From: Bacteroidales bacterium | Lineage (GTDB): Bacteria; Bacteroidota; Bacteroidia; Bacteroidales; UBA932 | Length of the DNA stretch: 64,000 nucleotides | Direction of reading: 5' to 3' | Assembly: GCA_031548545.1 (NCBI GenBank) | Contig: JAVBQY010000003.1 | Location: 6,899 to 70,898 of the forward strand | Part shown: positions 18,638 through 53,868 of the stretch, piece by piece | Layout of the letters: every line of letters starts with the position of its first letter | Numbering within the stretch: the stretch's first letter is position 1 | Notes under the pieces: generated by a model | Seen by the model: the letters and a program-made list of their open reading frames with translations, nothing else | Database searches by the model: none | What the model was told of the DNA's origin: nothing | Program-made: the position numbers and the translations under genes

Positions 18638-18650
18638 TTAAGGTTGAAAA

Positions 18651-21761: not shown

Positions 21762-21799
21762 AGGTTACTTTTATTAATTATTTTAGGTAAAACAGTGTG

Positions 21800-21807
21800 C
21801 AAAAATA
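21800..21807 (-). promoter_or_regulatory. -7 promoter box (TATTTTTG on the minus strand) for susC
   Basis: The plus strand reads CAAAAATA. It lies 39 nt upstream of the susC ATG at 21761. Confidence 0.45.
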
Positions 21808-21836
21808 ATAATAATTTAACAACTAACAAATTCTTA

Positions 21837-21851
21837 GTGTCATTTTCACAC
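21837..21851. promoter_or_regulatory. Candidate operator: inverted repeat GTGT-N7-ACAC (GTGTCATTTTCACAC)
   Basis: Lies ~30-45 bp upstream of the susC -7 box. It has the same half-sites and spacing as the second site at 21947-21963. Confidence 0.3.
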
Positions 21852-21929
21852 GATTTTTTTAATACAAAAAATAATTCTATAACATACTCTAAATTAGGAT
21901 AACTATTTTTGCATATAGAAAATAATAAC

Positions 21930-21937
21930 TATATTTG
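21930..21937 (+). promoter_or_regulatory. -7 promoter box TATATTTG for the GH30-GH16-GH3-GH3-GH5 operon
   Basis: TAnnTTTG match 66 nt upstream of the GH30 ATG at 22003. Confidence 0.5.
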
Positions 21938-21946
21938 TCCGGGTAT

Positions 21947-21963
21947 TGTGTTAAAATCACACA
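21947..21963. promoter_or_regulatory. Candidate operator: inverted repeat TGTGT-N7-ACACA (TGTGTTAAAATCACACA)
   Basis: 5-bp perfect arms. It begins 10 nt after the -7 box, so it covers the expected transcription start of the GH operon. Confidence 0.35.
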
Positions 21964-22002
21964 TCTGTATACGGCTTAACATTTTCTTTACACCTTAATA
22001 CT

Positions 22003-23451: not shown

Positions 23452-23464
23452 ATTCTTATCAACT

Positions 23465-24322: not shown

Positions 24323-24327
24323 TTACA

Positions 24328-26541: not shown

Positions 26542-26556
26542 GTACACAAGCCAAGC

Positions 26557-28863: not shown

Positions 28864-28871
28864 GCCATACG

Positions 28872-36029: not shown

Positions 36030-36854
36030 CTACTTTAAGCCGTAGTTCAAACGCACTGTTACACCCAAGGCCCAGGGGCGGACGGCATCCGCCATATCAA
36101 CCAAAGCGCCGTAAGCTAAATGCGCCGGAGCGGAAGACGCATAAGACACCAGGCTATTGGAGGGAGCTTTCGCCCCGACCGGGTTCATGCCCCAATCAAA
36201 ATATACCCCCGTATACAACCTCCAATGCCCGGATAAGGTCCACTTATACCCGGCTTCGGCAGCCAACATAAAAGCAGTATTGAATTTCAGGTCTGCTTTT
36301 TCGTCCACAGCCCGGTTATTGTACAAGCCTAAAGCAGGCTCATCACTATAAGTCACATTAAGCTGCCGGCTATAGGCCGTAGTCGTTAAGACGCCCGTTT
36401 CCTGCGCTTTTGCACTCAGGGGAATAGCAATCTTCACCCCCAGCGCCGCATAAAACGAAGAAGGGGTCGGGCGCTGAAACTCCATCATCAGCGGGATAGA
36501 CAGAAAGCCGGCTGCAACCTTTTCCTTATAACCGGTATACGCATAATTAAAATCAATATCAGCGCCTAAATCCGACCGCATAATATTGGTATTGGCAAGG
36601 CTGCCGGCCGTGGTTTCCGCATTATAAAACGCCCATTCAAGGCCGCTCCTCACCGACCACTGCGGTGAGAAGATGAGATGGTAGCCGAGTCCGAACTTTC
36701 CGCCCCAACCGGGGCTATAATCTGTTCCCGGAACCGTATAATGGAGTGTAGAAAGGCCGCCGCCGCCATTTACGGAAAATTCATGGCGAAGCTGAGCCAT
36801 TGCGGGGGCGCCGATCAAAAATAACAGTATAAATAGTAATAGTTGACGTTTCAT
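36030..36854 (-). CDS. Small outer-membrane beta-barrel protein (paralog of 43182-44027)
   Basis: 274 aa. Signal peptide ...APAMAQ. Alternating-residue strands; starts HEFSVNGGGGLSTLHYTV; C-terminal strand VTVRLNYGLK. It starts 18 nt downstream of the stop of the 2101-aa T9SS cargo gene. Confidence 0.8.
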   Translation of the reverse strand: MKRQLLLFILLFLIGAPAMAQLRHEFSVNGGGGLSTLHYTVPGTDYSPGWGGKFGLGYHLIFSPQWSVRSGLEWAFYNAETTAGSLANTNIMRSDLGADIDFNYAYTGYKEKVAAGFLSIPLMMEFQRPTPSSFYAALGVKIAIPLSAKAQETGVLTTTAYSRQLNVTYSDEPALGLYNNRAVDEKADLKFNTAFMLAAEAGYKWTLSGHWRLYTGVYFDWGMNPVGAKAPSNSLVSYASSAPAHLAYGALVDMADAVRPWALGVTVRLNYGLK

Positions 36855-36872
36855 TGTAATTCGCTTAAAAGA

Positions 36873-39800
36873 TTATTGCACTAACAATTTGGACGTCTGT
36901 TTATTTCCATCGACATCCACCAACTGGATAAGATAAAGTCCCGGCATCAGGCCGCTGACATCCACGGAAGTAACCGTACCGGTTACGGGAATATTAGCCT
37001 TCTCTATACCACCGGACATGTTGTAGACATTCATGACGCTACCGCTTTGCCCCGCCTTAAAATTCACGGTCACTTGTCCGCCCGCATTCACCGGATTCGG
37101 ATACACGGATAAGGCATTTGACGGAGTCTGCGGCGCAAAATCACATACGGCCAATTTATAGCCTTTGTCTGTCTGCATCTCGCAACGATATACACCGGCA
37201 TCGCCGTCAGGAACAGAGATATAAGGCTTAGTGGCGCCGGCAATAGCAAGCCCATTTCTATACCATTGGAAAGCCGTATAGTGGAAGCCGCCATTCGTTA
37301 CAGGATTACAATTAACGGTGGGCATTTCCGACCATTCATAAGCAATCACCTCTTCTTCCGGCATGCCGACAATGAGCGCCACCTCCCGGCTAATCGTCAC
37401 GGCAGAACGGCCGGAAACAATTACCCGGTAAATAGCCGCATCGGCAACCGTTACCGCATTAATAGCGAATGAAGAGGCCGTAGCGCCGTCAATATCCTGC
37501 CAGATGGCATTATCTTTCTTCTGCCACTGGTACTTCAACTCCAACCCTGAAGCCGTAACCATAAATGAAGCCGGTTCGCCGATACAGGCTTTCACCTCTT
37601 CCGGCTGCGTAGCCAGCAAGGTGGGAATAGGCGTTATGGTCAACCGTCCGGGCAGCGGTTTCATGATATACATTTCCGGGAGCGCATTTTCCACTACCGT
37701 AGCAATAGGATACACGCCGGCTTTTGACTGTCCGGACACCACGGCAATAAAGGTCGTCATGTCCAAGACATCGGTCACCGCATGCCCGTCAAATAAGGGA
37801 CCGGAAACCGTACCCGTCAATTCGGGAATCGCATCATTTTCAACCATTGTCTTATTATCCGCTGTAATTGTAAGCACGGATTTTGAAATCACACAGGTAT
37901 CTTCCGAAGGACTGGATTCCAAATCCGCATCGGCCTCGTATACGGCAGCTACCGAATAACAAATCTGCTGCGCCATAGGCGGATGTACATGCGTATACGT
38001 AGTCGCATCCGTTTCAATTAAAGGGGTGCTTGCGCCATTGGCATATACTTTAAAAGTCACTTTATTATTGTCAGGCCTGGTTAAAACGGCGGCCAGGTTC
38101 CAGTTCCCGACAATAGACTGCGGCAGGAGAGCAAACTGCCCCCTCGATTGGGCAATCAGATTGCCTTTCCCGTTAATTGTAGCGCTTGTCGGGTCTATCC
38201 CTGCGACATAAACAGCTTCATCTCCGGTTTTAGGCGCCTGTATGTATTCATAGGAAATCACCAAATCATCGCCTAACAGAATATCTACCGGAGTAGTCAG
38301 CTCGATATGATTAAACACCGCATCGCCACTTGCATGCACTTGTAAATCGGTCAATGGCTGGGTATGGGCTAATTCTCCATTTCTATAAATATTCAGGGCC
38401 ATATCCGTTCCCCGTCCTATAACTAACAATTCCACGGCTTTAAGCTTATACCCCTCATATAACATCAGGTCTTCGGCGGTAAAGTAAATAGCAGGTTCCA
38501 AAAATCCTCCGGAGGCCAGTCCAACGCCCGTGCCTGTGGGATTGCGTCCTGTATCCCAGCGCAAAACAACATCAGATTCGTCCTTGCGCACAACTGCGGC
38601 TTGTGCGGTAATCACAGGCGTTTCCGATACGGCAATCACTTCCAAAGGCTGTTTAAAAGGATGCGATATATTGAGCTTTCTTCCCTCATCCCCTTCCAGC
38701 TTTTTGTACAATTTCACATCGCTCTGCAGCGCCTGTAAGTTAAGCGGCATCTTCTTTTGCAAAGCCGACCGTTGTTCCGTCAGGTCAGGCATAGCGGCTC
38801 CACCTGCACTAATGGGGGCGGATACCAAAGCGGCAGACGGAATCGGCCCTGTCCCGATGGAAATATCGTCAATCATCAGCATCCAGGCATCAATAGACAC
38901 GCAATTAATAGCCACATGTTTTGCCTCGGCAGGCAGTACGTAGGAATAACGGGTCCATGGCCCGGAGGGCGCCTCCTCATAGGCCCCCTGAGACAACACA
39001 TGGATAAAATCAGCCACCGCATTACCGGTGGTAGAGTATAACACCCTGAATCGTTCACTAAATTGCGAACTATACGATTTAGCCCAAAACGCCACCGTAG
39101 CCTCCGATTCCAGGTTCAACTCAGGACTAATCATCCAGTCATTGTTTTGCACCCCGTCAGTAGCAGCCACACATGCAAAAAACTTCTTCCCGCTATGCGG
39201 CGCCCATTGGTCAGGGAGCGCAGCAGCCATATCTACCGTTTCGCCGGTTGCACGGTCTTTAAATTTAGTCGGACTCATCACCATAAAGGCCATTTTAGCA
39301 TACTCATTCGTAAAAGTGACATTCTCATAAAACGCATAGGTATCCTTATCGTCGCCGTCATAGTAAGTCCAGGAAGCGGTACCCGGAGCATTAATGGCAA
39401 AATCGGCATGCGCTTCCGCATTATCAAAAACGCCTTTAAACTCAGGTCTTTCAAAATTCCAGGCCAAATCTATAGCCTGGTCCTCATCGTTATATTCCGC
39501 CACAAGCGCAGTAGGGGCCGCACCGGCCTGTTTCACAACAACTGCAGCGGTATTTCCTCCGGCTGCAATATTGATTATACCGGAGCGTACCAACTGGCTT
39601 TTATTTTCGGCGCAGCTAAACCGGATACTCGCCTCGTCGGACACAGGCCCGCTCACGTCATCAAGCTGAATCCACGAGTCCGTAGTGCTTGCTTTCCAGG
39701 AGCTTGCATTGGAAGTTAAAGTAATGGCCTGGCCCTGACTGTCTATATTACCCACCTTCATACGCTTGGGCGAAGTCAGGTCCATAAAGGTATAAGTAAA

Positions 39801-42800
39801 GGTAGGTACGACATTCATCGACATATATGAACCTTCAATAAGCAGATTTACAGGTAGCCAACCAAACGTCTGATAACTGGCATATACACTGGTTTCCTGT
39901 GAACCTCTTAATGCCGTAGAAGGAATTATACGCGCTCCCGCTCCTCCAACCTTTGTAAACACCACATAAAAATTACCGGAGACCACGGCCGGTTTCGGAA
40001 AAGTAACCGTAGTATAACCATTCGTCGAAGGCGTAACAGTAGCGCTGGCCAGCAATGCCCCGACAGTACCCGGAAGATCCGAATACGGGCTGGGCATTTC
40101 AGCATGGACGGCTACTTTTACGGTCACCGTACCCGCAACATTAAATGAATAAAACTTAACAGAAGGAATTTCTCCGGGCGAAGTATTGACAAAACGTTCG
40201 GCAATACCCTGAGGAAATGTCGTATAATTATCACCCACGGCCGTCATAAACACATTCTGGGCGGATTGATAGAAGTAGAGTGCACTTTCATCACCGTAAA
40301 CATTCCAAATGTCGGCCGTACCCCCTACCTGTACGTGCTTTTCGCTCGTGGTATCAACGGTGGCTGCCAGATTAGACACTTCCAGGGAAACATCATGATA
40401 CACCGTGGCGGAAGCAGCCGGATAGGCCGCCACATAGCTGGCGGCAGTAGAAGAGGCTGGAGATCCGCCCGGGGTGCTCCATTTCCAGGACGTAGGGTAG
40501 TTTTTCGACACATCCAGGTAAAAGACCTGTCCGCCATTGCGTGGCAAAGATTGGCCGCGCGATTGCGTATTCCAACCCGTAGAAACGGAAATGAAGTCTA
40601 TGTCCGGAGTAACCGCTTTTACCTCAATGGCATTTTCCAATGTTTTCACATCTTCGCCTTCGGTGTTTTTCACCTTCAGCGTAACATTATAGGTGCCCTG
40701 ATGCATATACACTGTCTCCGGATTGGAGAGCGTGCTGGCTGTCATTTCAGCTCCCGGCATGGACCAATCCCACAGCACCACAGGACCTCCAGTAGTTTTA
40801 TCTGTAAAAATAACTTTATCGCCCTCATTTATCGTAATAGGGGCCGTAGCGCCATTCATGGCAAAAGCGGCGACAGGACGTACGACATCCACCTCATGGG
40901 TAAATTTAATATTGGGGCGGTAGTCATATAAGGTAGACGTTGAGGCGCCGGAAATATCCAGGGCCGCAGTCGCTGCCCAATAACGAAGTTTCCCGGTCGC
41001 CGGCGTATAAGGCGTTAGCGGATTACGCGTAGCGTCTGTGGGGTATTCCGTTTCTACAATAACCAGCAAGGCGCTGGCGCCGTCATAAGTAAACGAGCCT
41101 GCATTAAAGGGGAAAGAAGCATACACACCTGCCGGATTGGTATAATTTTGATATTCGGCCACCTTTACCGCTCCGGCAGAGATTGCCCCATAGGTATTGT
41201 ACGCACCTGAGCTAAGGCTTGACACGGAGGCATCCAGCTGTTTAAGATAAACACGCACCGTACTGGTCGTTATCGTCTGGCTTTCGGAACAATACCATGA
41301 AACGGATGTAATATTATGATTACCTATGCGCTCAATTTCCGCCGGCGTATATAAGGCCGCCGTGTACAATTTAGCCCGGTTAAAACCACTGGTTCCCAAA
41401 GGCAGGGCGCCTTGGGCCGTACCTGTCCCCACAATCAGTTCTTCTTTATTTTTCAACAAGGCGGTTATCGTAACCGTCTTACTGGATTCTTCCGGACTTC
41501 CTGCATTCACCGTTAAGGCAGCGGTATAGGTTCCGGGCACATTATACGTGATCAGCGGCGGTGTTTTGCCGGTAAAACTGGCGGGGGTTCCTCCCTCAAA
41601 AGTCCAGTTCCAGCTGGTGGCGCCATTGGATGCATCTCTGAATGAGATGGACTCCGTCGCATAAAATTCGGTTTTGCTGACCACAAAGCCTGCCGCTACA
41701 GCCCCCGCACGGTAGCCTCCGTTCACATATTCCTCTCCGGAACCCACGGGGTCAAGATAGTCTTTCATCCTTTTTTTCGGATCGGCATTCTGATCATAAT
41801 GATACCATAAAGCGCCGTATATAGAGTTTCCTTTAGGGCTGGCGCAATTCTCCTCCGGGCCGCCGGTCAGGGTGCCCACCACGCGTCCGTTCTGGTCAAA
41901 CAAAGGAGAACCGGAAGCGCCGCCCTGCGTTAAGCCGTGTCCATTGGCGGTAGCCACAAAGAGCGCCTGCCAATAAGCGCCGGTCGCTCCGACCTCACCA
42001 CTGTTCATTCTGGCCGTATAAGAAACAGCCGGGCTGGTATAGGTAAAAATTTTCTTCACATCCCCGTTAGGATGGCCGATACCCACGCCCGATTGAGGCG
42101 CTACCCGCCTCCTGTCCCAGCCATTATAATACACTCCGTAATTTTCCGGAATACGGTCGTTCAACTGCAACAGGCTGCCGTCGGAGCCTCCGTGTACCTG
42201 AATTTGCGTTAACATCGTAGCGCCGACAATCGTATTATTTTGAGACGTCGTATAGGTTCCCGGATTAGGGTCATAGTCGTCTTTACAGCCCGCCACTTCA
42301 TAGTTAAAATAATAGATGGCCTTATTCATGTCGGCGGCGGTTTGTCCGTCATAACAGTGGAAGGCGCTTAAGAATATAGGATCAAGGTTACGCGCGGTAT
42401 TGTTGATAATAGTTCCGCTACACAAACCGTAACCGCCGCCGGCTATCGGCGTCAAAATACGCGCCACCCCTCTTTTCTGGTCTTGCCAGTTATCTCCTTC
42501 CGGACAGTTAACATTCACCTGGCAGGCCAGGGTGCCGACAAAGCGGATATGCAACTGATCTCCGTCGGCAGACAAATCCATGTGATTATAACCATAACCG
42601 ATAGATGCGATGACTAACTGCAAAGCGCCTGCTTTATCGGTTGTTCGTACAGGAGGGACATACTCCAGGGTAATTTGGTCACCGGGAAGCGGCTGTGTGG
42701 CATACTCCTGCCGTTTAGGGTTGGTGTTGGAGGTAAAGGCGCCTATCACCTGGCCTTTGGCCGCATTATACAAGAAAAGGTGGCCACCCTCCGGGATAAT

Positions 42801-43178
42801 AAACTTATCATAGGTCAGCAACAAGGCAATGGCATTGGGCACTTTCAGCGTCAGGCGCCAAATAGACTGCCCGTTGGGAAGCACGGTCCATTCTCCGGAG
42901 TTTTCCGGTGTAAGGTGAACCGGAATTTCATAAAAGGCACGGGGAGGCATCCCCGCAGCTTCCCGGATCTTGTCTTCCGCTTTCAAAGCGGCGACATCAA
43001 AGTCAGGCTGCACGTGACGCAGCTGTTGCGCGCTCATCGGCGCAATGCCCGGATGTAAGAAACTGGGAGGTGTTCCGCCTTCGCTGATTTGCGCCCCCAG
43101 AGAGAGGGTGCAGCAAAGAGAAAGGCAAACCAAAAGGTATTTTAGAAAAAAGAGTCGTCTGTTCATGGTATTTTTCAT
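36873..43178 (-). CDS. Giant T9SS-secreted mosaic protein: lysyl-endopeptidase-like S1 serine protease, PKD repeats, BACON-like, choice-of-anchor-J/cleaved-adhesin-like, MBG-like and Ig-like domains, type-A T9SS C-terminal sorting domain
   Basis: 2101 aa with signal peptide. Catalytic triad candidates His274 (SAFHCY, nt 42357-42359), Asp333 (GSDGSLLQL, 42180-42182), Ser422 (GGASGSPLF, 41913-41915). PKD-like WNWTFEGG / WDWSMPG / WKWSTPGG modules. BACON-like SWKASTTDSWIQL...VVVKQ. NDWMISPELNL...FRVLYSTTG...MIDDISIG. C-terminal VYPNPVNAGG...GLYLIQL...KLLVQ. Confidence 0.9.
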   Translation of the reverse strand: MKNTMNRRLFFLKYLLVCLSLCCTLSLGAQISEGGTPPSFLHPGIAPMSAQQLRHVQPDFDVAALKAEDKIREAAGMPPRAFYEIPVHLTPENSGEWTVLPNGQSIWRLTLKVPNAIALLLTYDKFIIPEGGHLFLYNAAKGQVIGAFTSNTNPKRQEYATQPLPGDQITLEYVPPVRTTDKAGALQLVIASIGYGYNHMDLSADGDQLHIRFVGTLACQVNVNCPEGDNWQDQKRGVARILTPIAGGGYGLCSGTIINNTARNLDPIFLSAFHCYDGQTAADMNKAIYYFNYEVAGCKDDYDPNPGTYTTSQNNTIVGATMLTQIQVHGGSDGSLLQLNDRIPENYGVYYNGWDRRRVAPQSGVGIGHPNGDVKKIFTYTSPAVSYTARMNSGEVGATGAYWQALFVATANGHGLTQGGASGSPLFDQNGRVVGTLTGGPEENCASPKGNSIYGALWYHYDQNADPKKRMKDYLDPVGSGEEYVNGGYRAGAVAAGFVVSKTEFYATESISFRDASNGATSWNWTFEGGTPASFTGKTPPLITYNVPGTYTAALTVNAGSPEESSKTVTITALLKNKEELIVGTGTAQGALPLGTSGFNRAKLYTAALYTPAEIERIGNHNITSVSWYCSESQTITTSTVRVYLKQLDASVSSLSSGAYNTYGAISAGAVKVAEYQNYTNPAGVYASFPFNAGSFTYDGASALLVIVETEYPTDATRNPLTPYTPATGKLRYWAATAALDISGASTSTLYDYRPNIKFTHEVDVVRPVAAFAMNGATAPITINEGDKVIFTDKTTGGPVVLWDWSMPGAEMTASTLSNPETVYMHQGTYNVTLKVKNTEGEDVKTLENAIEVKAVTPDIDFISVSTGWNTQSRGQSLPRNGGQVFYLDVSKNYPTSWKWSTPGGSPASSTAASYVAAYPAASATVYHDVSLEVSNLAATVDTTSEKHVQVGGTADIWNVYGDESALYFYQSAQNVFMTAVGDNYTTFPQGIAERFVNTSPGEIPSVKFYSFNVAGTVTVKVAVHAEMPSPYSDLPGTVGALLASATVTPSTNGYTTVTFPKPAVVSGNFYVVFTKVGGAGARIIPSTALRGSQETSVYASYQTFGWLPVNLLIEGSYMSMNVVPTFTYTFMDLTSPKRMKVGNIDSQGQAITLTSNASSWKASTTDSWIQLDDVSGPVSDEASIRFSCAENKSQLVRSGIINIAAGGNTAAVVVKQAGAAPTALVAEYNDEDQAIDLAWNFERPEFKGVFDNAEAHADFAINAPGTASWTYYDGDDKDTYAFYENVTFTNEYAKMAFMVMSPTKFKDRATGETVDMAAALPDQWAPHSGKKFFACVAATDGVQNNDWMISPELNLESEATVAFWAKSYSSQFSERFRVLYSTTGNAVADFIHVLSQGAYEEAPSGPWTRYSYVLPAEAKHVAINCVSIDAWMLMIDDISIGTGPIPSAALVSAPISAGGAAMPDLTEQRSALQKKMPLNLQALQSDVKLYKKLEGDEGRKLNISHPFKQPLEVIAVSETPVITAQAAVVRKDESDVVLRWDTGRNPTGTGVGLASGGFLEPAIYFTAEDLMLYEGYKLKAVELLVIGRGTDMALNIYRNGELAHTQPLTDLQVHASGDAVFNHIELTTPVDILLGDDLVISYEYIQAPKTGDEAVYVAGIDPTSATINGKGNLIAQSRGQFALLPQSIVGNWNLAAVLTRPDNNKVTFKVYANGASTPLIETDATTYTHVHPPMAQQICYSVAAVYEADADLESSPSEDTCVISKSVLTITADNKTMVENDAIPELTGTVSGPLFDGHAVTDVLDMTTFIAVVSGQSKAGVYPIATVVENALPEMYIMKPLPGRLTITPIPTLLATQPEEVKACIGEPASFMVTASGLELKYQWQKKDNAIWQDIDGATASSFAINAVTVADAAIYRVIVSGRSAVTISREVALIVGMPEEEVIAYEWSEMPTVNCNPVTNGGFHYTAFQWYRNGLAIAGATKPYISVPDGDAGVYRCEMQTDKGYKLAVCDFAPQTPSNALSVYPNPVNAGGQVTVNFKAGQSGSVMNVYNMSGGIEKANIPVTGTVTSVDVSGLMPGLYLIQLVDVDGNKQTSKLLVQ

Positions 43179-43181
43179 TTT

Positions 43182-44027
43182 TTATAAACCGAATGTCAAG
43201 CGAAGATTAAGACCCACAGCCATTGGCCGGAATGCGGAAACCAATCCGGTATCCAAGGCTCCTGAAGAATAAGTATATTTCGGCGGAGAAGACGTCAATG
43301 TCGAATTATCTTCGGCAAATGTCACCAGTGCTGCATCCGACTTCTTTTGCATATTATTCAGGCCATAGTTAAAATATAAACCTGCATAAAAGCTCATTCT
43401 TTCAGTAAGGGATAAACGGTATCCGGCTTCCAAATGCAATTGTACGGCTATGTTCGCTTCATAAGAGCCCGAATATTCTTTTACGCCCTTAGGGGTATTC
43501 GGGGCAAACAAGGCGTCTATATTATACTCGACGGCCTCATAATCCAGGTACACAGCATTGGTTTGGTGTCCTGCCGCCTGCGCCGTATAGTTCGTACTTA
43601 CCGGAATACCGATTTTACAGCCGCCGGCAAACTGAAAGGCGTGCTTATCTGCCAAAGGCAGGGTATAACGGCCCAACAAAGGAATTTCCAGCATCAACAA
43701 CGACTGCTTTTCAGTAAAGCCCGACAGGGTATAATCAAAACGGCCGGCAGCCTGCTGAGCGCTCAGCGAGGCCTTATTCATACGAAGTTCGGCGCCGTAA
43801 TAAGACATATCGATTCCTGAAAGGAGGCTCCACGATGTATTAAAATTATAGGCATAGCCCACTCCGCCGCCGCCGCCGAAACCATTAGACAAAGTAGCTC
43901 CGTCGACACTATAACTCAGTGTCTGGAGGCCGCCAAAGCCATTTACAGATAACTCATGCTTGTTTTGGCCGTTCACCGTATTTCCGATAAGTAATGAAAG
44001 GCCTATTATTATAATTAATCTTCTCAT
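43182..44027 (-). CDS. Small outer-membrane beta-barrel protein (paralog of 36030-36854)
   Basis: 281 aa with signal peptide. Starts HELSVNGFGGLQTLSYSV and ends VGLNLRLTFGL. Collinear with the other barrel protein. 21 nt downstream of the 1993-aa cargo gene and 3 nt upstream of the 2101-aa gene. Confidence 0.8.
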   Translation of the reverse strand: MRRLIIIIGLSLLIGNTVNGQNKHELSVNGFGGLQTLSYSVDGATLSNGFGGGGGVGYAYNFNTSWSLLSGIDMSYYGAELRMNKASLSAQQAAGRFDYTLSGFTEKQSLLMLEIPLLGRYTLPLADKHAFQFAGGCKIGIPVSTNYTAQAAGHQTNAVYLDYEAVEYNIDALFAPNTPKGVKEYSGSYEANIAVQLHLEAGYRLSLTERMSFYAGLYFNYGLNNMQKKSDAALVTFAEDNSTLTSSPPKYTYSSGALDTGLVSAFRPMAVGLNLRLTFGL

Positions 44028-44048
44028 AATGCTATTTCTTTAAACACA

Positions 44049-47000
44049 TTAATACACAACAATTTTCTGCGTTTCTACAGTTCCGTCGGGCAACTGTATC
44101 TGTAAGAGATAAACGCCCATATTTTCCGGAGGAGTAATACTGTCCGAAACATCAGCATAATGCCGTATCAACTTACCGGCAAGGTCATAGACCGAAACGT
44201 TCACCTTGCTGACGCCTTCCGGCAGAGAAAGGCTCAACAATGCTCCGGCGGCTACCGGATTAGGATATACGGTTATTCCGGTCGCATGTTGCACCACCTG
44301 GCTCCTGCAGGTATGATGCCATTGGCCGGTTGACTGCATGCGTACATCGGCATAATAACTGTTGCGGTCATTATTGAAGGCAATATAATTATCTGTTTCC
44401 AAGACTTCCGTACTGCCGTCACGGTACCATTTGAAAGCGTCAAAGGTATATCCGCCGTTATTGAGCGGGTTATTGACAATAGCCAGGGTCTTGCCCCAAC
44501 GTTCAACATACAATGGTTTGGCCGTACTACCCAACGCCTCAGAGACAACCAGCCTATAACTCATGCTTCCGACAGAAGGCACGGTCGCTGTAATTACAAT
44601 ATCGGCCTTGTGTTTATCGAATACGAGCTGCTTCGGCGTACCTGTGGTATAAGGATCTCCGTTAATTTTAATATCGCCGGCGCCATTAATAGAAAGCATG
44701 ATGCTATTGTCACCGCAGGCAGCCATGTATTGCATGTGGTCATCAACAGCCAGGGGCTCATTGTTAATCGTAATGCCGGTCACCTCCGGAGTCTGCCTAA
44801 CGAATACCACTTCAATAAGATGGTTCGCAGCCACGTTCGTAAAGGTATAATAAGCATTCTCTACGGCAGTGGAATTATTGCTGCCGTCAATCAGGACTTC
44901 CGCAATGCGGTAATAATTATCGGGGATGATGACAAAGTTCTTGGTAGCCCCATGGTTTACAGTCACCGACCCGGCGGGTAAAATAGTACCGCCAACGCCG
45001 GCTGTAGCCGTAAGGACATAAGTAAGGCGTTCAAATGTCGCTTCGATGGTATGGTCGGCCGATATCGCCGTAAAGGCATACGTACCGCTGCTCACCGCCG
45101 CTGCATTATTGACCCCGTCAATCAATACCTGTGCAATCTTATAGCCGGTAGCGGGCTTAATGGTGTAGCTGCTATTGGTACCATGCGCCCGGGTCAATAC
45201 ACCAGCCGGAGTTATAGTACCACCGGCTCCGGCTGTGGCCGTTATCGTATAAGTCAATTGAGAGAAACTTGCGGCAATCGTATGGTCGGCGGTGATATTG
45301 GCGAAGGTATAGCTGGCAGCAGTAACCGCTGCGGCATTGTCCACACCGTCAATCAGGACAGACTGCAGTTTATAGCCGGCATCCGGCACTATGCTATAAC
45401 TTTGGCTACTGCCGTAATCGGCCGTCAGGGTTCCGGCCGGAACAATCGTTCCGCCATTACCGGCCGTTGCATTGAGGGTGTAGGTAAGCAGGGTAAAGGC
45501 CGCTTCGATGGTATGGCTGGTATTGATATCGGTAAAAGTATAACTACCGGCGGTTACGGCGGCTGCATTATCAAGGCCGTCCACCAGCACGCGGCTTAGC
45601 CTGTAGCCGGTATTGGGCGTAAAGGTATAGCTTTGCGCCGAGCCATGGGACACGGACAAGGTGCCGGACGGTGAAATACTACCGTTCAAATCACTTGTAG
45701 CGGTTATGGTGTAGGTCATCGGAGTAAAAGAAGCGTCGATGGAATGATTTTCATTGATATTCGTAAACGTATAGGTATAGGAACTATTGGCTACAGCCAA
45801 AGGATCCGGAACGCCATCTACCAATACGTTGCCGATACTGAAGCCTGTATTGGCCGTAATGACAAAAGATTTATCATCACCGGCCAGGGCTCCCACCGCA
45901 CCGGAAGGAGTGATTGCACCACCGTGACCGGCCGTAGCAGCAATCGTATACTGAGATGACATAAAAGAAGCAGTTATGGTATGTGCGGCGTCTACATTTG
46001 TAAAGGTATAATGACCGGCAGCTACAGCCGAAGGAGTGTTTACTCCGTCGACCAACACTTCACTGATGGCATAAGCAGGGTCTGCTGTTATTTGGAACGC
46101 CTGGTCACGGCCTTCATATACGGGGGTTGCACCGGCTGGGCTTATTGAACCGCCGGCTCCGGCTGAAGAAGAAATCATATGCGTTACCGGTTCCACACGG
46201 ATATTGTCAATATAAATATCGGTACCCACTAAGCCAATAGCCTCAAACACCAATCGTCCCATAGTCATCTGCGAACAATCCAAGGTAACGGTATATTCAT
46301 ACCAGCCTATAGCAGGGGCCGCAGGCTCCAGATGCCTGTTCCGCCTTACGGTCAGCACCGGGGTCTGATCAGTATACACACCGTATTTATCTGTTAAATA
46401 GACATTCACCCGGTCGTCTTTCATACTGTTCCCCTCATCACGGTACATATAAAATTTTAACACGTAATTATTGCCGCTAAAATCAAGTACCGGAAGGGTA
46501 AGGGCTACACGGGTCCCGCTTTTAGCTAAAAAACTATTAAAGCCTAACATCCCGGCGCCGGACTGCGGGTAACAGTTCTGGGGAAAGCCCATGGTCTTGG
46601 TTACATTTTCCCAAAAAACCGTTTCGGTCGTTTCATTCTTATAACATTGTTTAATAAAAACTTTTCTTTCATCGGGCTGAATATCATCGAAGCCTTCAAC
46701 AAAAGGAAGCGCCCTCGGGGTCATACAGGGAGACTCACTCACCACAATTTCCTGCTCCACAGGAGCCGACTCGCAATAGTTGTCATACACCACGGATACA
46801 CCGTAGTTATAGCTTCCGGGCAAGGCCGATTCATCTTTCAGGATGTTATCGAAAACCGGATTCACATTAAGTTTCACACCGTTCCTGTAAACATTAAATC
46901 CTTTGCGGTTAATATCTTCAGCGCCGGCTAAAGCGCCTATACACCAACTACCGCGGGCGATCTGAGCAGAAAGAGGAGCCCAGGACTGGCCGTCGTAAAT

Positions 47001-50000
47001 CATATCCGATTTACCTTTCAATGCTTCGTCCACAATATTATCATAAGCGGCCGGCTTTCCGGCAGCCGTCATATTACAACGAATGCCTATCCATAAATGC
47101 TGGGCGGGATTAATTACCGGAGGCTGGGCAAGACGAATCATGTTCCATTGCCCAATAGTCAATGTTTCTGTAATAACAGGCTGATCAACAAGCAGTGTAC
47201 CGGGCTCGGTTTCCGAACCTCCTTGCCAGATACGGATACTATAATTACAATTTTTGTCTGCCGGAATAAATTTCACCACCGTGATTTTTTCACCGTCCAT
47301 TGCCGTTAAGTCCGCCGGCTCCCAACGGGACGCAATCATAAAATCAATAGCCTGCGGCTGACCGATAGACCCTTCCATGGAAGATCCGCTATAAGCCAGC
47401 GTGTGCTCTTGCGTAGGTGATTTCCACTCCAGTCCTACGGTATACCAGTCGGGATCAGCAGGTGGAATAAGGGTAAGGCTCTTCACCGGCTCACCGCAAC
47501 GATCCACCACTAAAAGCTCCGGTGTCACTATCCGCTTGGATACCCCACAGAAATTATTATAAACGGCTTCCACCTCGTAGGTATAAGGACCCAGCGCCAA
47601 GGCAGCATCCGTGTAGCTTGTCGCCGTCACCGCAGCGGCCAACAACACATTATTTCTATATACACTGTAATGTAACAGGTTTTCCGTCCGGGCCGGCGCT
47701 GCCCAGCTCAGCTGTACGCTTCGGTCATTGACGGAATACTCCAATTCCCTTACCGGATCACATTTATCGGAAGTATATACGGAAATTTCATCCAACATAA
47801 CACCATAACCGGCATTATTCACCCCCTCAAAAGCAATCCAATAAGTTTCAGACGCTCCGGGCAGGTCTATCACACGTTCCGTCCATTCCGGCACATTGCC
47901 GGTATAAGTCGCCAACAAGGTCCATTTGGCGGTAGGCGAGTTTTTATAATAGACCCTTAATTCGTCCTGGTTTGTATTATACGCCTTTTGCGCATGCCAG
48001 AAAGTAAGGATGGGCCGTGCTACCAATGACAGATTGATGGCCGGTAATATTAATTTTGTAGTTTCCCCTTTCAGGTAAGAGTGAAAATACATTTTGTAAG
48101 CGCCGGACTTTGCCGTAGTAGGTTGTCCGCTCGTTGCATTGACAACCTCCCAGGGCGCATTGCCCAACATGTAATCATTGATCCAGCAAGCAGGGAGTGC
48201 CCTGGTATTGAAATTTTCCTCATATGGAAATACCGTAATACGGGGTGCGCATTCCTCGGGTGTTATCGCAACGGTTTTGACTACCGGGCTGGATTCGCAA
48301 TTGTCATTCCATACAGCCGTTACGGCATACACCGTATTTCCGGCAGCTGTCGCCAGATCAAGGTACTCCGTGGCGGTCACCAATGCCGGATTGACTTTCT
48401 CCCCATTTCGGTAAATATTATAACCGGCCACCCCATCATAGCCCTCCCAGATCAGCTGTACGTTCTTCCAGTTAGGATAGTTGACTACAAACTCAAGATT
48501 TTTAGGCGCTGCACAGATAGACAGCGGACCGCCGATCTGAATATCATCAATATATAAATTATTTCCGCCATTGCTCACCACTTCAAAGAATACATATCCG
48601 GCGGTTAAAGTAGCCGAAGACAAGGCAACCCTATAATCATACCAGCCGTCTTTCAGTACTGCCGGGGCTTTGGCTGCGCTCCTGTTAAAAGTCTGCACCG
48701 GGGAAAGGCCGGCAATGCTCTTGGTCGGGCTCACATATACATTCACCCGGTCCACAGAGTCCGGAAGCGCAAAATTACGATATAACTTAAAGGAAACCAG
48801 GCAATCAGCATTACTAAAATCCAGGTATGGAGAACGCAGCACGCTCTTGGCCCCCTTAGTGTAAGCCGGGCAGTTAAAGCGCAACATTTTTGAACCGGAG
48901 GCCGGAGTACAAGCCGGATTGGTACCGGAGGAGACCAACTCCCAAACCGCATCAAGCTTTCCGGAAATATTCCAGCAGGAAGAGGCAAAATCACCATCAA
49001 AATTTTCTACCACCGGCAAAGCAAGCGGAGCTACACAGGGGTCATCCGGCATCACCACCGAATAGGTGGAAGCCGGCGACTCACATTCAACCGGATTGCC
49101 ATAAAGCGCCGTAACACCATAAACATAAGTTCCCGGCCCGGAGACTTCCGTATTAAAAGTACGGTCTGTAACCATGGACGTATTTTGTTTAACACCATCT
49201 TTAAAAACATTATAACCACTCACCTGCGCTTTTTCACCATACAATTTAAAAGGTAAATTCACCGCCCGCGAACCAGAAGGAGCAAGATTCTCGGTCCAAT
49301 TGGACCAGGTTGTCCGGTTACTGGTGGTCATCGCATTGCCTACCGGCAAAGACAAGTCTGCATGAACAGTCCAAGGCAGGTTTGATTTGGAAGATCCGGC
49401 GGACAACTCTATCCAATAAGTACCGGGAGCCAAGGTACAGCCCATGCTGGCCCTTATATACATTATAGGATAAGAGGGTTGAGTAAGAGTTGCCGCGCTC
49501 ACCCTGAAGCAATTGGTAAATCCGGTCTCCGAGAAATGGTTTAAATCATCACCCCAGATCACCTTACCGCCGGCATTGGGCTTACCGTCCCAAATACGTA
49601 CATAGGCGGCATTAAAGGGCGAAACCAGAGAATAACTTGCAGAGGTATAACCACTTGGATAGGCATAAAACTCAACAAAATCAATCTTGGTTTCGTTGGT
49701 CAGGGTAAAATCATCCGTTACATGTTGGTTATTCCCTTTATTAATAGCCTTACCCTGGATCATCTGGCGCGTATTCATCTTACTGACGTCCGCCCCATTG
49801 AATCCGACCCCTAAATCCGTAACGAAACGTCCGTTATCATAAATTAAGGTCAAACTACTGGCATCACTGGCCGGCACTTCCCAATTAACTGTAAAGTTAA
49901 ACCACTCCGGCTTATGCATATTAACCGTAACGCTTGCAGGTGCATTACAGGTAGACTGAGCCTTAGCCCCCTCTGAGTAAGCCATCGCCAGAAGCAATAT

Positions 50001-50030
50001 ACCCAGGATTTGGAGAATCTGTTTTTTCAT
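44049..50030 (-). CDS. Giant T9SS-secreted repeat adhesin-like protein (Fn3-like plus choice-of-anchor-J-like supermodules, six InlB-B-repeat-like tandem repeats, type-A T9SS C-terminal sorting domain)
   Basis: 1993 aa with signal peptide MKKQILQILGILLLAMAYSEGAKAQ. Four GYNV/IY(R/K)NG...Y.Y.V.AVY.N.CES Fn3-like units. Three ENF(D/N)...W...YIDDIQIG-type modules. Six ~77-aa repeats. C-terminal ITVYPNPVAAG...GVYLLQIQL...QKIVVY. Confidence 0.9.
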   Translation of the reverse strand: MKKQILQILGILLLAMAYSEGAKAQSTCNAPASVTVNMHKPEWFNFTVNWEVPASDASSLTLIYDNGRFVTDLGVGFNGADVSKMNTRQMIQGKAINKGNNQHVTDDFTLTNETKIDFVEFYAYPSGYTSASYSLVSPFNAAYVRIWDGKPNAGGKVIWGDDLNHFSETGFTNCFRVSAATLTQPSYPIMYIRASMGCTLAPGTYWIELSAGSSKSNLPWTVHADLSLPVGNAMTTSNRTTWSNWTENLAPSGSRAVNLPFKLYGEKAQVSGYNVFKDGVKQNTSMVTDRTFNTEVSGPGTYVYGVTALYGNPVECESPASTYSVVMPDDPCVAPLALPVVENFDGDFASSCWNISGKLDAVWELVSSGTNPACTPASGSKMLRFNCPAYTKGAKSVLRSPYLDFSNADCLVSFKLYRNFALPDSVDRVNVYVSPTKSIAGLSPVQTFNRSAAKAPAVLKDGWYDYRVALSSATLTAGYVFFEVVSNGGNNLYIDDIQIGGPLSICAAPKNLEFVVNYPNWKNVQLIWEGYDGVAGYNIYRNGEKVNPALVTATEYLDLATAAGNTVYAVTAVWNDNCESSPVVKTVAITPEECAPRITVFPYEENFNTRALPACWINDYMLGNAPWEVVNATSGQPTTAKSGAYKMYFHSYLKGETTKLILPAINLSLVARPILTFWHAQKAYNTNQDELRVYYKNSPTAKWTLLATYTGNVPEWTERVIDLPGASETYWIAFEGVNNAGYGVMLDEISVYTSDKCDPVRELEYSVNDRSVQLSWAAPARTENLLHYSVYRNNVLLAAAVTATSYTDAALALGPYTYEVEAVYNNFCGVSKRIVTPELLVVDRCGEPVKSLTLIPPADPDWYTVGLEWKSPTQEHTLAYSGSSMEGSIGQPQAIDFMIASRWEPADLTAMDGEKITVVKFIPADKNCNYSIRIWQGGSETEPGTLLVDQPVITETLTIGQWNMIRLAQPPVINPAQHLWIGIRCNMTAAGKPAAYDNIVDEALKGKSDMIYDGQSWAPLSAQIARGSWCIGALAGAEDINRKGFNVYRNGVKLNVNPVFDNILKDESALPGSYNYGVSVVYDNYCESAPVEQEIVVSESPCMTPRALPFVEGFDDIQPDERKVFIKQCYKNETTETVFWENVTKTMGFPQNCYPQSGAGMLGFNSFLAKSGTRVALTLPVLDFSGNNYVLKFYMYRDEGNSMKDDRVNVYLTDKYGVYTDQTPVLTVRRNRHLEPAAPAIGWYEYTVTLDCSQMTMGRLVFEAIGLVGTDIYIDNIRVEPVTHMISSSAGAGGSISPAGATPVYEGRDQAFQITADPAYAISEVLVDGVNTPSAVAAGHYTFTNVDAAHTITASFMSSQYTIAATAGHGGAITPSGAVGALAGDDKSFVITANTGFSIGNVLVDGVPDPLAVANSSYTYTFTNINENHSIDASFTPMTYTITATSDLNGSISPSGTLSVSHGSAQSYTFTPNTGYRLSRVLVDGLDNAAAVTAGSYTFTDINTSHTIEAAFTLLTYTLNATAGNGGTIVPAGTLTADYGSSQSYSIVPDAGYKLQSVLIDGVDNAAAVTAASYTFANITADHTIAASFSQLTYTITATAGAGGTITPAGVLTRAHGTNSSYTIKPATGYKIAQVLIDGVNNAAAVSSGTYAFTAISADHTIEATFERLTYVLTATAGVGGTILPAGSVTVNHGATKNFVIIPDNYYRIAEVLIDGSNNSTAVENAYYTFTNVAANHLIEVVFVRQTPEVTGITINNEPLAVDDHMQYMAACGDNSIMLSINGAGDIKINGDPYTTGTPKQLVFDKHKADIVITATVPSVGSMSYRLVVSEALGSTAKPLYVERWGKTLAIVNNPLNNGGYTFDAFKWYRDGSTEVLETDNYIAFNNDRNSYYADVRMQSTGQWHHTCRSQVVQHATGITVYPNPVAAGALLSLSLPEGVSKVNVSVYDLAGKLIRHYADVSDSITPPENMGVYLLQIQLPDGTVETQKIVVY
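44802..46178 (-). repeat. Six in-frame tandem coding repeats (72-79 aa, about 231 bp each) inside the 1993-aa gene
   Basis: Protein residues 1285-1743. Each unit reads ..TYT(I/L)TATAG.GG(T/S)I.P(A/S)G......G....(F/Y).I.P..GY.I..VL(V/I)DG.....AV..(G/A).YTFT.I...HTI.A.F, resembling divergent InlB B-repeats. The DNA copies are diverged rather than identical. Confidence 0.85.
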
Positions 50031-50068
50031 AAGGTTATTGTAAGTTTAGTTAGCAAAATTCGATTTTA

Positions 50069-50076
50069 CAAAATTA
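50069..50076 (-). promoter_or_regulatory. -7 promoter box (TAATTTTG on the minus strand) for the four-gene T9SS cargo operon
   Basis: The plus strand reads CAAAATTA, 39 nt upstream of the ATG at 50030, in the AT-rich divergent intergenic region. Confidence 0.4.
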
Positions 50077-50214
50077 TACGAAAAAATCCAGAAAAACACA
50101 AATTTAGACCTATATAAAATCTAACAAAATAAAAATAAAAACACTCATTATCAGCTATTTATTTTTTTACGCATCTTTCTTTCCCTTTTTAAGGCTTTTT
50201 CTAAAAAGAAATAG

Positions 50215-50222
50215 TAAATTTG
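50215..50222 (+). promoter_or_regulatory. -7 promoter box TAAATTTG for the TPR-LuxR regulator
   Basis: TAnnTTTG match 18 nt upstream of the ATG at 50240. Confidence 0.45.
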
Positions 50223-50239
50223 TGATACGCTATTTTAAT

Positions 50240-51970
50240 ATGAAAAAAATTATTTTCCTTTGTTGCTATCTCATCATTAGTCCGGCGCTACTCCAGGGTG
50301 TAGAGACAGGCCACAACCGGCAAGATTTTGACTCTTTAACAGCTAAAATAAAACACATTAGCTTTCATAGCCGGTCAAAGGCCTTATTACTCATGCAGGA
50401 ACTAAGGCAGTTAGCCCAAGATCATCCGGACAGCCTTAATTTAAAAAAGGAATGTCTTTACTATGAAGCTGAAATAGCTTATGCACAGGGGATTTATGAC
50501 TCCACCCTGATTCAACGCCTCCAGTATGAATTTCAGCGTACAAACAAAAGCAAACAGCCATTCCAATATGCTATTTTACAATATGCCATAGCGTTAAACC
50601 ACCTGACCAACGGAAATTATGCAGAGGCCTTCAGCATGACCCTGCATTCCCTGGAACAGTTCACGCAACTAAAAGACAGCGCATTTATAACGGAGACGAA
50701 TCTTTCATTAGGGCGGGTCTGTAGTTATATTGAAAGTTATAGAATGGCCGAAGATTATTACCAGAGAGCCCGAAAATTCACGAATCCGTCACGGAGCGAA
50801 TACTTTAGAATATGTTCCAATATATATACCACCCGCCTGGAGGACCTTGATGTCTTAGTAGACTCACTGCAAAACCTGATACCGGTCTTTGAGCGCCTGC
50901 AAGATACCTCTTCCATTGCCTCTACCTATTTAAATATAGGCTTGACCTATGCAGCCCAACAAAAATATGATAAAACCTATGAAAATTACCTGGCGGCCCA
51001 AAAGCTGCATCCATATATAGACAATCAGTTGTTTTCTATTTCTCTATGGCAAAACCTCGGCACCTACTACCTGCATATCGATAATCTCAAGGAGTCCTAT
51101 AAATATTTTCAAACGGCTAAAAATCTGGCCGTTCAATCGGGCAACCCCTATTTTATCGCCAGTATCTTACCCTCGCTGGCCGTCTTACACGAGAAACTAC
51201 ACCATAATGATAGCGCCTATATTTACCTGAAAGAATATAACGCCCTCAGAAATAAGCTATCAAGCAGCGCCAACCCCATTGAGGCGTATCAGGCCTATGT
51301 CAATGTCTTCCTGGCCGCCTCTCAGAAAGAGTTAACAATCAAGGAGCAGGAAATTTTACTACAAAACACCTATTTCATTGTCACCCTGATTTCCGCTACC
51401 GGTATTATTTTACTTATTATTTCCTGGGTAGTGATCTTGCAACAGCAAAAACGCCACATCCGCCAACAGACCCTATTAAAGGAGGCTGAAAACAGAGACC
51501 TTGAAGAAAGACTTCAAAGCAAGCAGGAAATTGAGCGGCTTCAAAAGGCTCAAATCCACACGCAAAGCAGGGAACTCACCACACATGCACTGGCCTTGTC
51601 CAACAAAAATCAAATTCTGCAACAAATTTCCAACATCCTTGACCGGGTACATACAGAACCTGCGGCCATTGAGGATATCCGCAAGATTATCAAAAACAAT
51701 ATCGAAACCGATAAGGCCTGGAAAAATTTCGTGGTGCACTTTGACAAGGTGCATCCTAATTTTTTCGACCGGCTACAGCAAATAAGCAACGAGCTTTCAA
51801 AAAACGACATCCGGTTGAGCGCCTATTTTCGTATAGGCATGACATCCAAACAAATCGCCCAAATGATCAATGTATCGGCAGATTCCATCTATATGCACCG
51901 TTGCCGGTTAAAGAAGAAGTTGAATCTCACGGACGAGCAGGATCTGGATGATTTTATTCAACATATATAA
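50240..51970 (+). CDS. Membrane-spanning one-component regulator: periplasmic TPR sensor, one TM helix, coiled coil, LuxR-type HTH
   Basis: ATG at 50240 (MKKIIFLCCYLIISPALLQG signal); the listed 50222 start is a GTG inside the -7 box. TPR-like repeats through ~aa 340. TM YFIVTLISATGIILLIISWVVIL (nt 51371-51439). Coiled coil EAENRDLEERLQSKQEIERLQKAQ. HTH DIRLSAYFRIGMTSKQIAQMINVSADSIYMHRCRLKKKL. Confidence 0.85.
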   Translation: MKKIIFLCCYLIISPALLQGVETGHNRQDFDSLTAKIKHISFHSRSKALLLMQELRQLAQDHPDSLNLKKECLYYEAEIAYAQGIYDSTLIQRLQYEFQRTNKSKQPFQYAILQYAIALNHLTNGNYAEAFSMTLHSLEQFTQLKDSAFITETNLSLGRVCSYIESYRMAEDYYQRARKFTNPSRSEYFRICSNIYTTRLEDLDVLVDSLQNLIPVFERLQDTSSIASTYLNIGLTYAAQQKYDKTYENYLAAQKLHPYIDNQLFSISLWQNLGTYYLHIDNLKESYKYFQTAKNLAVQSGNPYFIASILPSLAVLHEKLHHNDSAYIYLKEYNALRNKLSSSANPIEAYQAYVNVFLAASQKELTIKEQEILLQNTYFIVTLISATGIILLIISWVVILQQQKRHIRQQTLLKEAENRDLEERLQSKQEIERLQKAQIHTQSRELTTHALALSNKNQILQQISNILDRVHTEPAAIEDIRKIIKNNIETDKAWKNFVVHFDKVHPNFFDRLQQISNELSKNDIRLSAYFRIGMTSKQIAQMINVSADSIYMHRCRLKKKLNLTDEQDLDDFIQHI

Positions 51971-51973
51971 TAA

Positions 51974-52042
51974 GGTATAAAAAAACCGGCGAGGAAAATT
52001 CCCGCCGGTTTTTTTATTGATTAAATACCTGTCGCTTATTGG
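51974..52042. repeat. Left copy of a 69-bp direct repeat (terminator plus 7-nt nifJ 3' fragment)
   Basis: Aligns to 53800-53868 at an offset of exactly 1826 bp, 67/69 identical. 51980-52042 is identical to 53806-53868 (63 bp) by hand alignment. Confidence 0.9.
51979..52015. terminator. Bidirectional rho-independent terminator (serves the LuxR-type gene on + and the DUF262 gene on -)
   Basis: A7, stem CCGGCGAGG / CCCGCCGG, then T7. Confidence 0.8.
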
Positions 52043-53755: not shown

Positions 53756-53776
53756 AATTTTAGAAGAATAATTATA

Positions 53777-53784
53777 CAAATATA
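53777..53784 (-). promoter_or_regulatory. -7 promoter box (TATATTTG on the minus strand) for the DUF262 gene
   Basis: The plus strand reads CAAATATA, 22 nt upstream of the ATG at 53755. It lies inside the cassette, between the gene and the right repeat copy. Confidence 0.45.
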
Positions 53785-53799
53785 AAGATTAATAGCTTT

Positions 53800-53868
53800 G
53801 GTAACAAAAAACCGGCGAGGAAAATTCCCGCCGGTTTTTTTATTGATTAAATACCTGTCGCTTATTGG
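53800..53868. repeat. Right copy of the 69-bp direct repeat (native nifJ 3' end plus terminator)
   Basis: See the left copy. Here CTTATTGG is the reverse complement of the last nifJ codons (..CAA TAA). Confidence 0.9.
53805..53841. terminator. Rho-independent terminator after nifJ (duplicate of 51979-52015)
   Basis: Same hairpin and flanking A/T runs as the left copy. Confidence 0.8.

Follow-up and report, generated by a model that had tools for sequence, protein, structure and literature searches.

A stretch of 64,000 nucleotides from a Bacteroidales bacterium (contig JAVBQY010000003.1, positions 6,899 to 70,898), here called the window, contains four consecutive genes in which a giant protein and a small outer-membrane β-barrel follow one another twice. 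Both giants end in a type IX secretion system (T9SS) C-terminal sorting domain (CTD) of type A. The question raised by this locus is why each of these secreted giants is encoded together with a barrel of its own. The answer proposed here, which is drawn from synteny only and to which a probability of about 0.5 is given, is that the barrel would be the cognate outer-membrane docking anchor for cargo bearing an immunoglobulin (Ig)-like module in front of the CTD.

The genes are co-directional and lie in the order cargo 1, barrel A, cargo 2 and barrel B (Table 1), separated by 21, 3 and 18 nt. The order, the protein sizes and the gaps given for them in an earlier note on this DNA are all confirmed by the coordinates of the open reading frames (ORFs). 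No terminator-like hairpin was found in the gaps of the cluster, and neither terminators nor sigma-70 promoters stood out from the shuffled background in the intergenic sequence. Within the window, the only matches to CTD hidden Markov models (HMMs) are the two giants and the only matches to barrel HMMs are the two small ORFs. Furthermore, all four genes, together with a divergent regulator, are kept in a Bacteroidales metagenome-assembled genome (MAG; L002), whose barrel is 81% identical. The uniqueness of these matches, combined with the conservation of the whole arrangement, argues that the cluster did not arise by chance. Its best reading, held at roughly even odds, is that of one operon encoding two cargo/anchor pairs.

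Both giants are predicted to be secreted by the T9SS as type A cargo, having a visible N-terminal hydrophobic leader or signal peptide and a CTD that scores above the NCBI cutoff of 23 for the type A model TIGR04183. The CTD of cargo 2 also exceeds the PF18962 threshold of 27. No match to the type B model TIGR04131 was found for either giant in NCBIfam, so the type A assignment first made by eye in the earlier note stands. The similarity between the two giants lies in the last ~170 residues (26% identity, E 9e-15), which comprise the CTD and the pre-CTD module, plus a weak internal stretch. At residues ~250–455 of cargo 2 there is a Trypsin_2 match of 28.9 bits, just over its cutoff; given this domain, cargo 2 is probably a surface protease and adhesin, not a pure adhesin.

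The two small proteins align over their full length with 35% identity (E 1e-32) and are the paralogs that they had been taken for. Each has a signal peptide ending in G/A-Q (of type SPI in barrel A), then the motif (K/R)HE(L/F)SVNG, and an aromatic-rich last strand at its end. Barrel A matches PF13568 (34.1 bits versus a gathering threshold of 27) and barrel B matches PF13505 (34.2 bits versus 28.7). In Pfam and NCBIfam, neither barrel matches PF11751 (PorP/SprF) or TIGR03519 at E ≤ 1, and no PorP/SprF match was obtained at E ≤ 1e-3 among 91 relatives (0/91). PorP/SprF membership was rejected on these results and on the type A neighbours. The earlier note had suspected that the barrels were not PorP/SprF proteins and that they might constitute a distinct family. 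The searches with TIGR03519, PF13505 and PF13568 bear out the first point, while the second holds only with respect to PorP/SprF, as both proteins fall inside known Pfam space, above the gathering thresholds.

The relatives of these barrels are numerous. When 1.84 billion cluster representatives were searched with a profile, 656 clusters passed E ≤ 1e-30 and 1622 passed E ≤ 1e-10. Around 60% of the best matches are barrel-only proteins of 270–310 aa, and the rest have 450–600 aa. PF13568 was detected in 82/91 scanned relatives and the C-terminal OmpA peptidoglycan-binding domain (PF00691) in 34/91; the latter was also present in 10/10 sampled long variants located 3´ of cargo. Altogether, the peptidoglycan-binding OmpA fusion occurs in roughly 40–50% of the relatives sampled. 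PF00691 was not found in the barrels of the window, which end with the barrel itself. The residues kept across the wider family are H24, E25, G33, I115, P116, G136, K138, E200, the YGLN motif and G272. The family motifs comprise a signal peptide ending in A-Q, HE(F/L)S, GGGLS, E-K-Q...L-x-I-P, G-x-K-x-G-I-P, LYTGxYxDYGLNN and a terminal G-x-K-x-R-L-x-F-G. Members are labelled in databases as 'OmpA family protein', 'PorT family protein' or 'hypothetical'. As judged from these profile matches, the barrels are placed in a large subfamily of the generic PF13568/PF13505 OmpA-like superfamily. A scan of a genome collection with a narrow alignment yielded 3 loci. In a sheep-rumen Bacteroidales MAG (L005, 3878–7598), two tandem genes of 615–626 aa each show a split match to the barrel HMM, together with extra sequence.

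The AlphaFold2 (AF2) model of barrel A, based on 41 homologs, has a predicted local distance difference test score (pLDDT) of 90.8 and a predicted template modelling score (pTM) of 0.83. Strands 3–5 are very long in this model, reaching 27–33 residues in mid-chain, which implies a tall extension beyond the membrane. Foldseek matched barrel A with the OmpA transmembrane domain, NspA, OpcA, Pla/OmpT, OmpW and OmpX, with a probability of 1.0 and low template modelling (TM) scores (0.23–0.39). No T9SS component was present among the top 50 Foldseek matches listed. FadL structures gave TM scores of 0.12–0.22 with low probability, and proteins of 274–281 aa are too short for a PorV/FadL-like 14-stranded shuttle, a candidate that was discarded on both grounds. 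As modelled, barrel A is a small OmpA/OpcA/Pla-like protein of the 8–10-stranded class, whose extracellular part is long and in which nothing points to a wide pore. No solved structure related by sequence to the barrel was found, the best match of the profile search being an opacity protein (E 0.3).

The pairing of cargo and barrel extends beyond the window. Ten homologs with usable context were examined individually (27–100% identity, the window protein and its close ortholog included), and in all of them (10/10) the gene directly 5´ of the barrel carries the module and a type A CTD. The passengers are not related to one another and comprise an M6 peptidase with Big_2, a Big_2 protein, an Fn3_assoc/CHB_HEX protein and a YDG/MBG giant of more than 2700 aa, as well as a GH30 protein and a PL8 lyase in polysaccharide utilization loci (PULs) with SusC/SusD, and a mini-protein in a conjugative transposon. 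In the latter (L019, 6957–9527), a 341-aa module+CTD mini-protein and a 508-aa barrel–OmpA fusion are encoded between TraO and TraQ, within the tra operon of the element.

A metagenome scan using the barrel motif GxY[FLA][DN]YGLN[ND] recovered 80 loci, 72 of which were evaluable (at least 50 residues of upstream ORF). The upstream ORF carries a type A CTD in 56/72 loci by TIGR04183 (E ≤ 1e-3) and in 57/72 by a custom CTD HMM. Barrel-only and OmpA-fused forms are paired equally often (26/32 each), and the gap between cargo and barrel has a median of 54 nt. These loci contain 678 ORFs with a length of 100 aa or more, and only about eight others among them are CTD-positive; four of the eight, including one that is directly adjacent (L064), end no more than ~1 kb 5´ of the barrel, and another lies directly 3´ of a barrel. 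The pairs are diverse, with 58 being non-redundant at 90% identity and 23 clusters remaining at 50%. The neighbourhood analysis proposed in the earlier note, which asked how often such barrels sit immediately 3´ of CTD-bearing genes, is thus clearly positive in both samples. In one metagenome locus (L027, 2026–4173), the cargo encoded 5´ of the barrel has its module in one reading frame and its CTD in another, and may contain a frameshift or be a pseudogene.

The two giants had also been described as sharing a pre-CTD module with the motif F(Q/K)WYR(N/D)G. This is a real conserved domain of ~85 aa, and an HMM built from 21 copies matches both giants (Table 1). Its consensus is ..pF..lVv.RWNNTLtViNNP.NNGGy.F..YkWfRNG....ySAG..g..l....Y.vevtT.dG..lrTC. 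The module was found in 59/65 evaluable proteins encoded 5´ of barrels, always at positions −165 to −80 from the C-terminus and directly before the CTD. No Pfam or NCBIfam model corresponding to the module was found in 41 copies, which gave weak matches to Ig_7 'CHU_C associated' (4/41, best E 0.0018) and Ig_2 (1/41); the weak Ig_2 match in cargo 2 spans residues 1954–2006. A degenerate second CTD was considered and rejected, with an hhalign probability of 3.8% against the CTD profile. A shallow AF2 model of the module and CTD of cargo 1 is all-β and tandem-Ig-like, with a pLDDT of 60–77 over the module. A cysteine is located near the end of the module (..RTC..) in most copies, and just before the KWYK motif instead in one subfamily. 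Barrel A has one cysteine and barrel B none, which makes a general module–barrel disulfide unlikely.

The presence of a barrel is tracked best by the module, and less well by the CTD. In four loci (L039, L042, L065 and L090), a barrel comes after a CTD-less protein whose C-terminus is the module, and cargo with only a CTD is often unpaired. The barrel is the next gene 3´ of 62/67 module-bearing genes versus 5/11 CTD-only genes (Fisher p 6e-4), a comparison that is biased and suggestive only, since the loci were ascertained through their barrels. An internal control for the module–barrel link is provided by one locus (L011, 629–8755), which encodes a first cargo with module and CTD, a barrel, a second cargo with a CTD and no module, and LemA; the barrel is present only after the module-bearing cargo. 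A profile search with the module returned at least four short proteins. One of the CTD-less proteins, that of L039, is a lipoprotein (MKK...AMTSCKEDEP) whose lipobox is followed by the export-signal-like CKEDEP and by NHL repeats; its gene ends ~55 nt before the barrel at 1499.

Mantel tests indicate that barrel distances correlate with those of the adjacent CTD (r 0.68) and of the pre-CTD region (r 0.65; both p 2e-4), which means that the pairs travel as units. The nearest barrels of pair A (L008, L021, L006 and L022) also carry its nearest CTDs. Pair A is nearer to pairs of other organisms than to pair B, for the barrel and the CTD alike, and the nearest relatives of barrel B, besides the ortholog in L002, are OmpA-fused barrels. 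A recent tandem duplication of the pair was rejected because of this greater proximity of pair A to foreign pairs. The idea of a duplicated two-gene unit, put forward in the earlier note, survives as far as the paralogous barrels and the shared cargo C-termini are concerned, but not as a recent tandem event. By these distances, the two pairs of the window are old lineages set side by side.

The data show the order of the genes, the families to which they belong, the recurrence of the synteny, the module with its location and the predicted fold of the barrel. We infer from these data a physical binding, the cargo element that is bound and an anchoring role. The giant cargo would be exported by Sec and would then cross the outer membrane through the T9SS by means of its type A CTD. 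The barrel would insert in the outer membrane and project its tall β-sheet extension. The C-terminus of T9SS cargo lies at the membrane, and the membrane-proximal module would dock on the tall extracellular sheet of its cognate barrel, keeping the giant adhesin or enzyme at the cell surface. The module is favoured as the docked element because it, and not the CTD, is common to the CTD-less proteins that are paired. The OmpA-fused barrels could couple the anchor to peptidoglycan, and such a connection might be load-bearing.

The closest competitor of module docking, although unlikely, is that the part bound by the barrel is the type A CTD, which would thereby stay uncleaved, as with the CTD of PorZ on PorQ or PorU on PorV, the module being a mere spacer or folding domain. 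It has been speculated in reviews that cognate barrels shield CTDs from cleavage (PMC10202324). CTD binding would be in keeping with the ~80% of barrels that follow a TIGR04183 gene and with the correlation between barrel and CTD distances, but it leaves aside the four CTD-less, module-terminal proteins that are still paired with a barrel. Moreover, 6/11 CTD-only cargo proteins in the same loci have no barrel, and the barrel fold is unlike that of FadL-type PorV.

Next in order, and likewise unlikely, comes the view that there is no physical partnership at all. The barrel would then be a co-regulated accessory, acting either as a small channel for enzyme products or as an OmpA-like stabiliser of the outer membrane during the production of giant proteins. 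An outer-membrane barrel in a T9SS cellulase cluster was named a 'possible transporter' by Naas et al. (PMC5831590). The variety of cargo, which spans adhesins, proteases, lyases and the conjugative-transposon mini-protein, implies that there is no common product to import, even though two of the loci are inside PULs, and the predicted barrel belongs to a small, 8–10-stranded class. The place of the barrels in generic OmpA-like families would suit an accessory of this kind; however, a generic accessory would not be expected to track one 85-aa module in 59/65 cases.

An export or assembly function, instead of retention, is improbable too and ranks third. Here the barrel would act as a shuttle for its particular cargo or as a translocon targeting factor, the role of PorP/SprF for type B cargo. 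In F. johnsoniae, type B substrates require their cognate PorP/SprF for secretion itself (PMC12618676). The gaps of 3–21 nt in the window are an arrangement suited to translational coupling of a barrel with the cargo that it would help to export, but the OmpA peptidoglycan-binding fusion in about half of the relatives fits a static anchor more than a mobile shuttle, a wall-tethered barrel being better suited to anchoring. In addition, the lipoprotein without a CTD is paired with a barrel in the same way. Finally, a mobile recombination cassette of module, CTD and barrel, shuffled onto passengers and with a barrel function unrelated to the cargo, is very improbable: one C-terminal cassette does occur on very different passenger domains, related pairs are found across organisms and one pair lies inside a conjugative transposon, but gene order and short gaps are kept across barrels with 27–46% identity, which implies selection on the pairing, and neither transposase nor repeat boundaries were found around the cluster of the window.

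Several observations weigh against the proposal of a docking anchor. Around 20% of the barrel homologs are not next to a CTD gene; in three of these loci (L027, L031 and L096), however, a CTD-bearing ORF ends within ~1 kb 5´ of the barrel. Most metagenome loci come from a few Joint Genome Institute (JGI) sample series, so that lineage-specific expansions inflate the pairing counts. In the Mantel tests, the CTD and the pre-CTD region correlate with the barrel equally well, which shows co-inheritance and does not single out the interacting element. The sole module+CTD protein found independently of barrels (P0209, L101 2–2172) has no barrel after it; a gene for an SMC_N/AAA_15-type ATPase follows at a gap of 5 nt. 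Furthermore, reviews describe all type A cargo as being handled by PorV and anchored through anionic lipopolysaccharide (A-LPS), with no cargo-specific barrel (PMC12618676, PMC10202324).

A broader reading, held more tentatively and somewhat short of even odds, is that module–barrel docking might add a third mode, and a widespread one, to the ways in which Bacteroidota attach surface proteins, beside A-LPS sortase linkage and PorP/SprF. The module would plug into a cognate OmpA-type barrel, often wired to peptidoglycan; surface lipoproteins that do not pass through the T9SS would rely on the same module and barrel, and conjugative elements would carry them. The retention of type A T9SS cargo outside Porphyromonas is poorly understood, the accepted picture being PorV and A-LPS for all, and the matter is most relevant to Bacteroidales of the gut and rumen, with their giant adhesins and their enzymes that degrade polysaccharides. 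If docking were true, it would provide a testable anchoring mechanism recognisable from sequence (module and CTD, then barrel), a prediction of which secreted enzymes remain cell-bound and, for surface display in Bacteroidota, a portable tag made of two parts. Two families that lack annotation would be defined as well, namely the module and the barrel subfamily, to which pipelines at present give only generic labels.

The surroundings of the cluster in the window include the following features. In the AT-rich region 5´ of cargo 1, TAATTTTG lies 38 nt before the first ATG and fits TAnnTTTG, which we take to be the Bacteroidetes −7 promoter type; this octamer could be a candidate promoter of cargo 1. 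The operon is probably controlled by the divergent SusR-like regulator, which gives the Pfam matches TPR_12 (3.6e-15), GerE (2.6e-06) and DUF6377 (1.4e-05, under its gathering score). A low-GC patch at 50001–54000 (0.37–0.40 versus ~0.49) contains this regulator and a GmrSD-type restriction endonuclease (52043–53779, minus strand), and may have been acquired horizontally. A classical PUL extends over 17117–30623, with SusD (17117–18637) and SusC (18651–21761) on the minus strand and GH30, GH16, two GH3 and GH5+CBM6 enzymes on the plus strand, none of them with a CTD. This PUL looks directed to β-glucan. No T9SS machinery genes were found within the 64-kb window.

Table 1. Coordinates of the cargo–barrel cluster and of the adjoining regulatory region, in positions of the window.
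Feature	Position	Strand	Description
Barrel B	36030-36854	minus	ORF, 274 aa
Giant cargo 2	36873-43178	minus	ORF, 2101 aa
Type A CTD of cargo 2	36876-37112	minus	TIGR04183 33.9 bits; PF18962 34.1
Module of cargo 2	37128-37364	minus	Residues ~1939-2017; ...YEWSEMPTVNCNPVTNGGFHYTAFQWYRNG...AVC; module HMM 85-88 bits
Predicted domains of cargo 2			Signal peptide, trypsin-like serine peptidase, two PKD, BACON, choice-of-anchor J/Cleaved_Adhesin, MBG, Ig, pre-CTD module, type A CTD
Barrel A	43182-44027	minus	ORF, 281 aa
Giant cargo 1	44049-50030	minus	ORF, 1993 aa
Type A CTD of cargo 1	44052-44276	minus	TIGR04183 34.8 bits; AF2 pLDDT 82-92
Module of cargo 1	44292-44525	minus	Residues ~1836-1913; ...VERWGKTLAIVNNPLNNGGYTFDAFKWYRDG...HHTC; module HMM 82-85 bits
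Predicted domains of cargo 1			Signal peptide, three choice-of-anchor J/MAM, FN3-like (RGI_lyase beta-sheet), six InlB B-repeat-like, pre-CTD module, type A CTD
AT-rich intergenic region, 5´ of cargo 1	50031-50221	minus	Carries TAATTTTG at 50069-50076
SusR-like regulator, divergent	50222-51970	plus	TPR repeats, DUF6377/SusR_C, GerE (LuxR-type) helix-turn-helix

Among known systems, the closest likeness is to the PorP/SprF barrels and their type B cargo (SprB–SprF in F. johnsoniae and PG1035–PorP–PorE in P. gingivalis), in which a cargo-specific barrel is likewise encoded beside a T9SS cargo. The barrels that serve type B cargo are cognate PorP/SprF proteins, the peptidoglycan-binding PorE takes part as well, and PorZ remains attached to PorQ (PMC9143113, PMC12618676, PMC10202324). 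The role proposed here would also be alike, a need for the barrel in secretion and surface anchorage having been proposed or shown there. A peptidoglycan-binding domain of the OmpA_C type appears in both systems, as PorE in one and as the fused OmpA domain of many relatives in the other. The differences concern the barrel family (PF13568/PF13505 here), the cargo signal, which is type A (TIGR04183) here and type B there, and the extra conserved Ig-like module that accompanies the pairing described here. As classified by HMM matches and by CTD type, the arrangement resembles that of PorP/SprF and type B cargo but is no member of it.

In the attachment complex of P. gingivalis, the PorQ–PorZ and PorV–PorU pairs offer a second parallel. 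Type A-like CTD proteins remain bound there to a barrel and are not cleaved or linked to A-LPS, which is the likeness to the role proposed here. However, PorQ and PorV belong to the core machinery, occur once per genome and are PorP/SprF-like and FadL-like, respectively, whereas the present barrels are small, OmpA-like, multiply duplicated and encoded cargo by cargo. PorT is also a small Bacteroidota outer-membrane barrel tied to the T9SS, and relatives labelled 'PorT family protein' (e.g., P0183) match PF13568. Unlike the barrels studied here, PorT is a single-copy core component that is not linked to cargo; we take the NCBI label on such relatives to be a generic family name and not a sign of orthology.

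OmpA proteins, with their small barrel and C-terminal PF00691 domain, share the fold class, and their complete architecture is found in about half of the relatives. It has been proposed that OmpA proteins are the cell-wall anchors of the T9SS-linked cellulolytic surface complex of Fibrobacter succinogenes (PMC6851124), which is the same role as that suggested here, namely tying surface enzyme complexes to the cell wall. The barrels of the window differ in that they lack OmpA_C and have the subfamily motifs (the HEFS start, EKQ..L.IP, G.K.GIP and LYTG.Y.DYGLNN). Synteny with module+CTD cargo, which is unreported for OmpA proteins, defines the subfamily here. No description of barrels linked to type A cargo was found in the literature searched by full text, the coverage of which is incomplete. 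In comparison with all of these systems, what appears to be new is the systematic pairing of a barrel subfamily with type A cargo, together with the Ig-like module that accompanies it.

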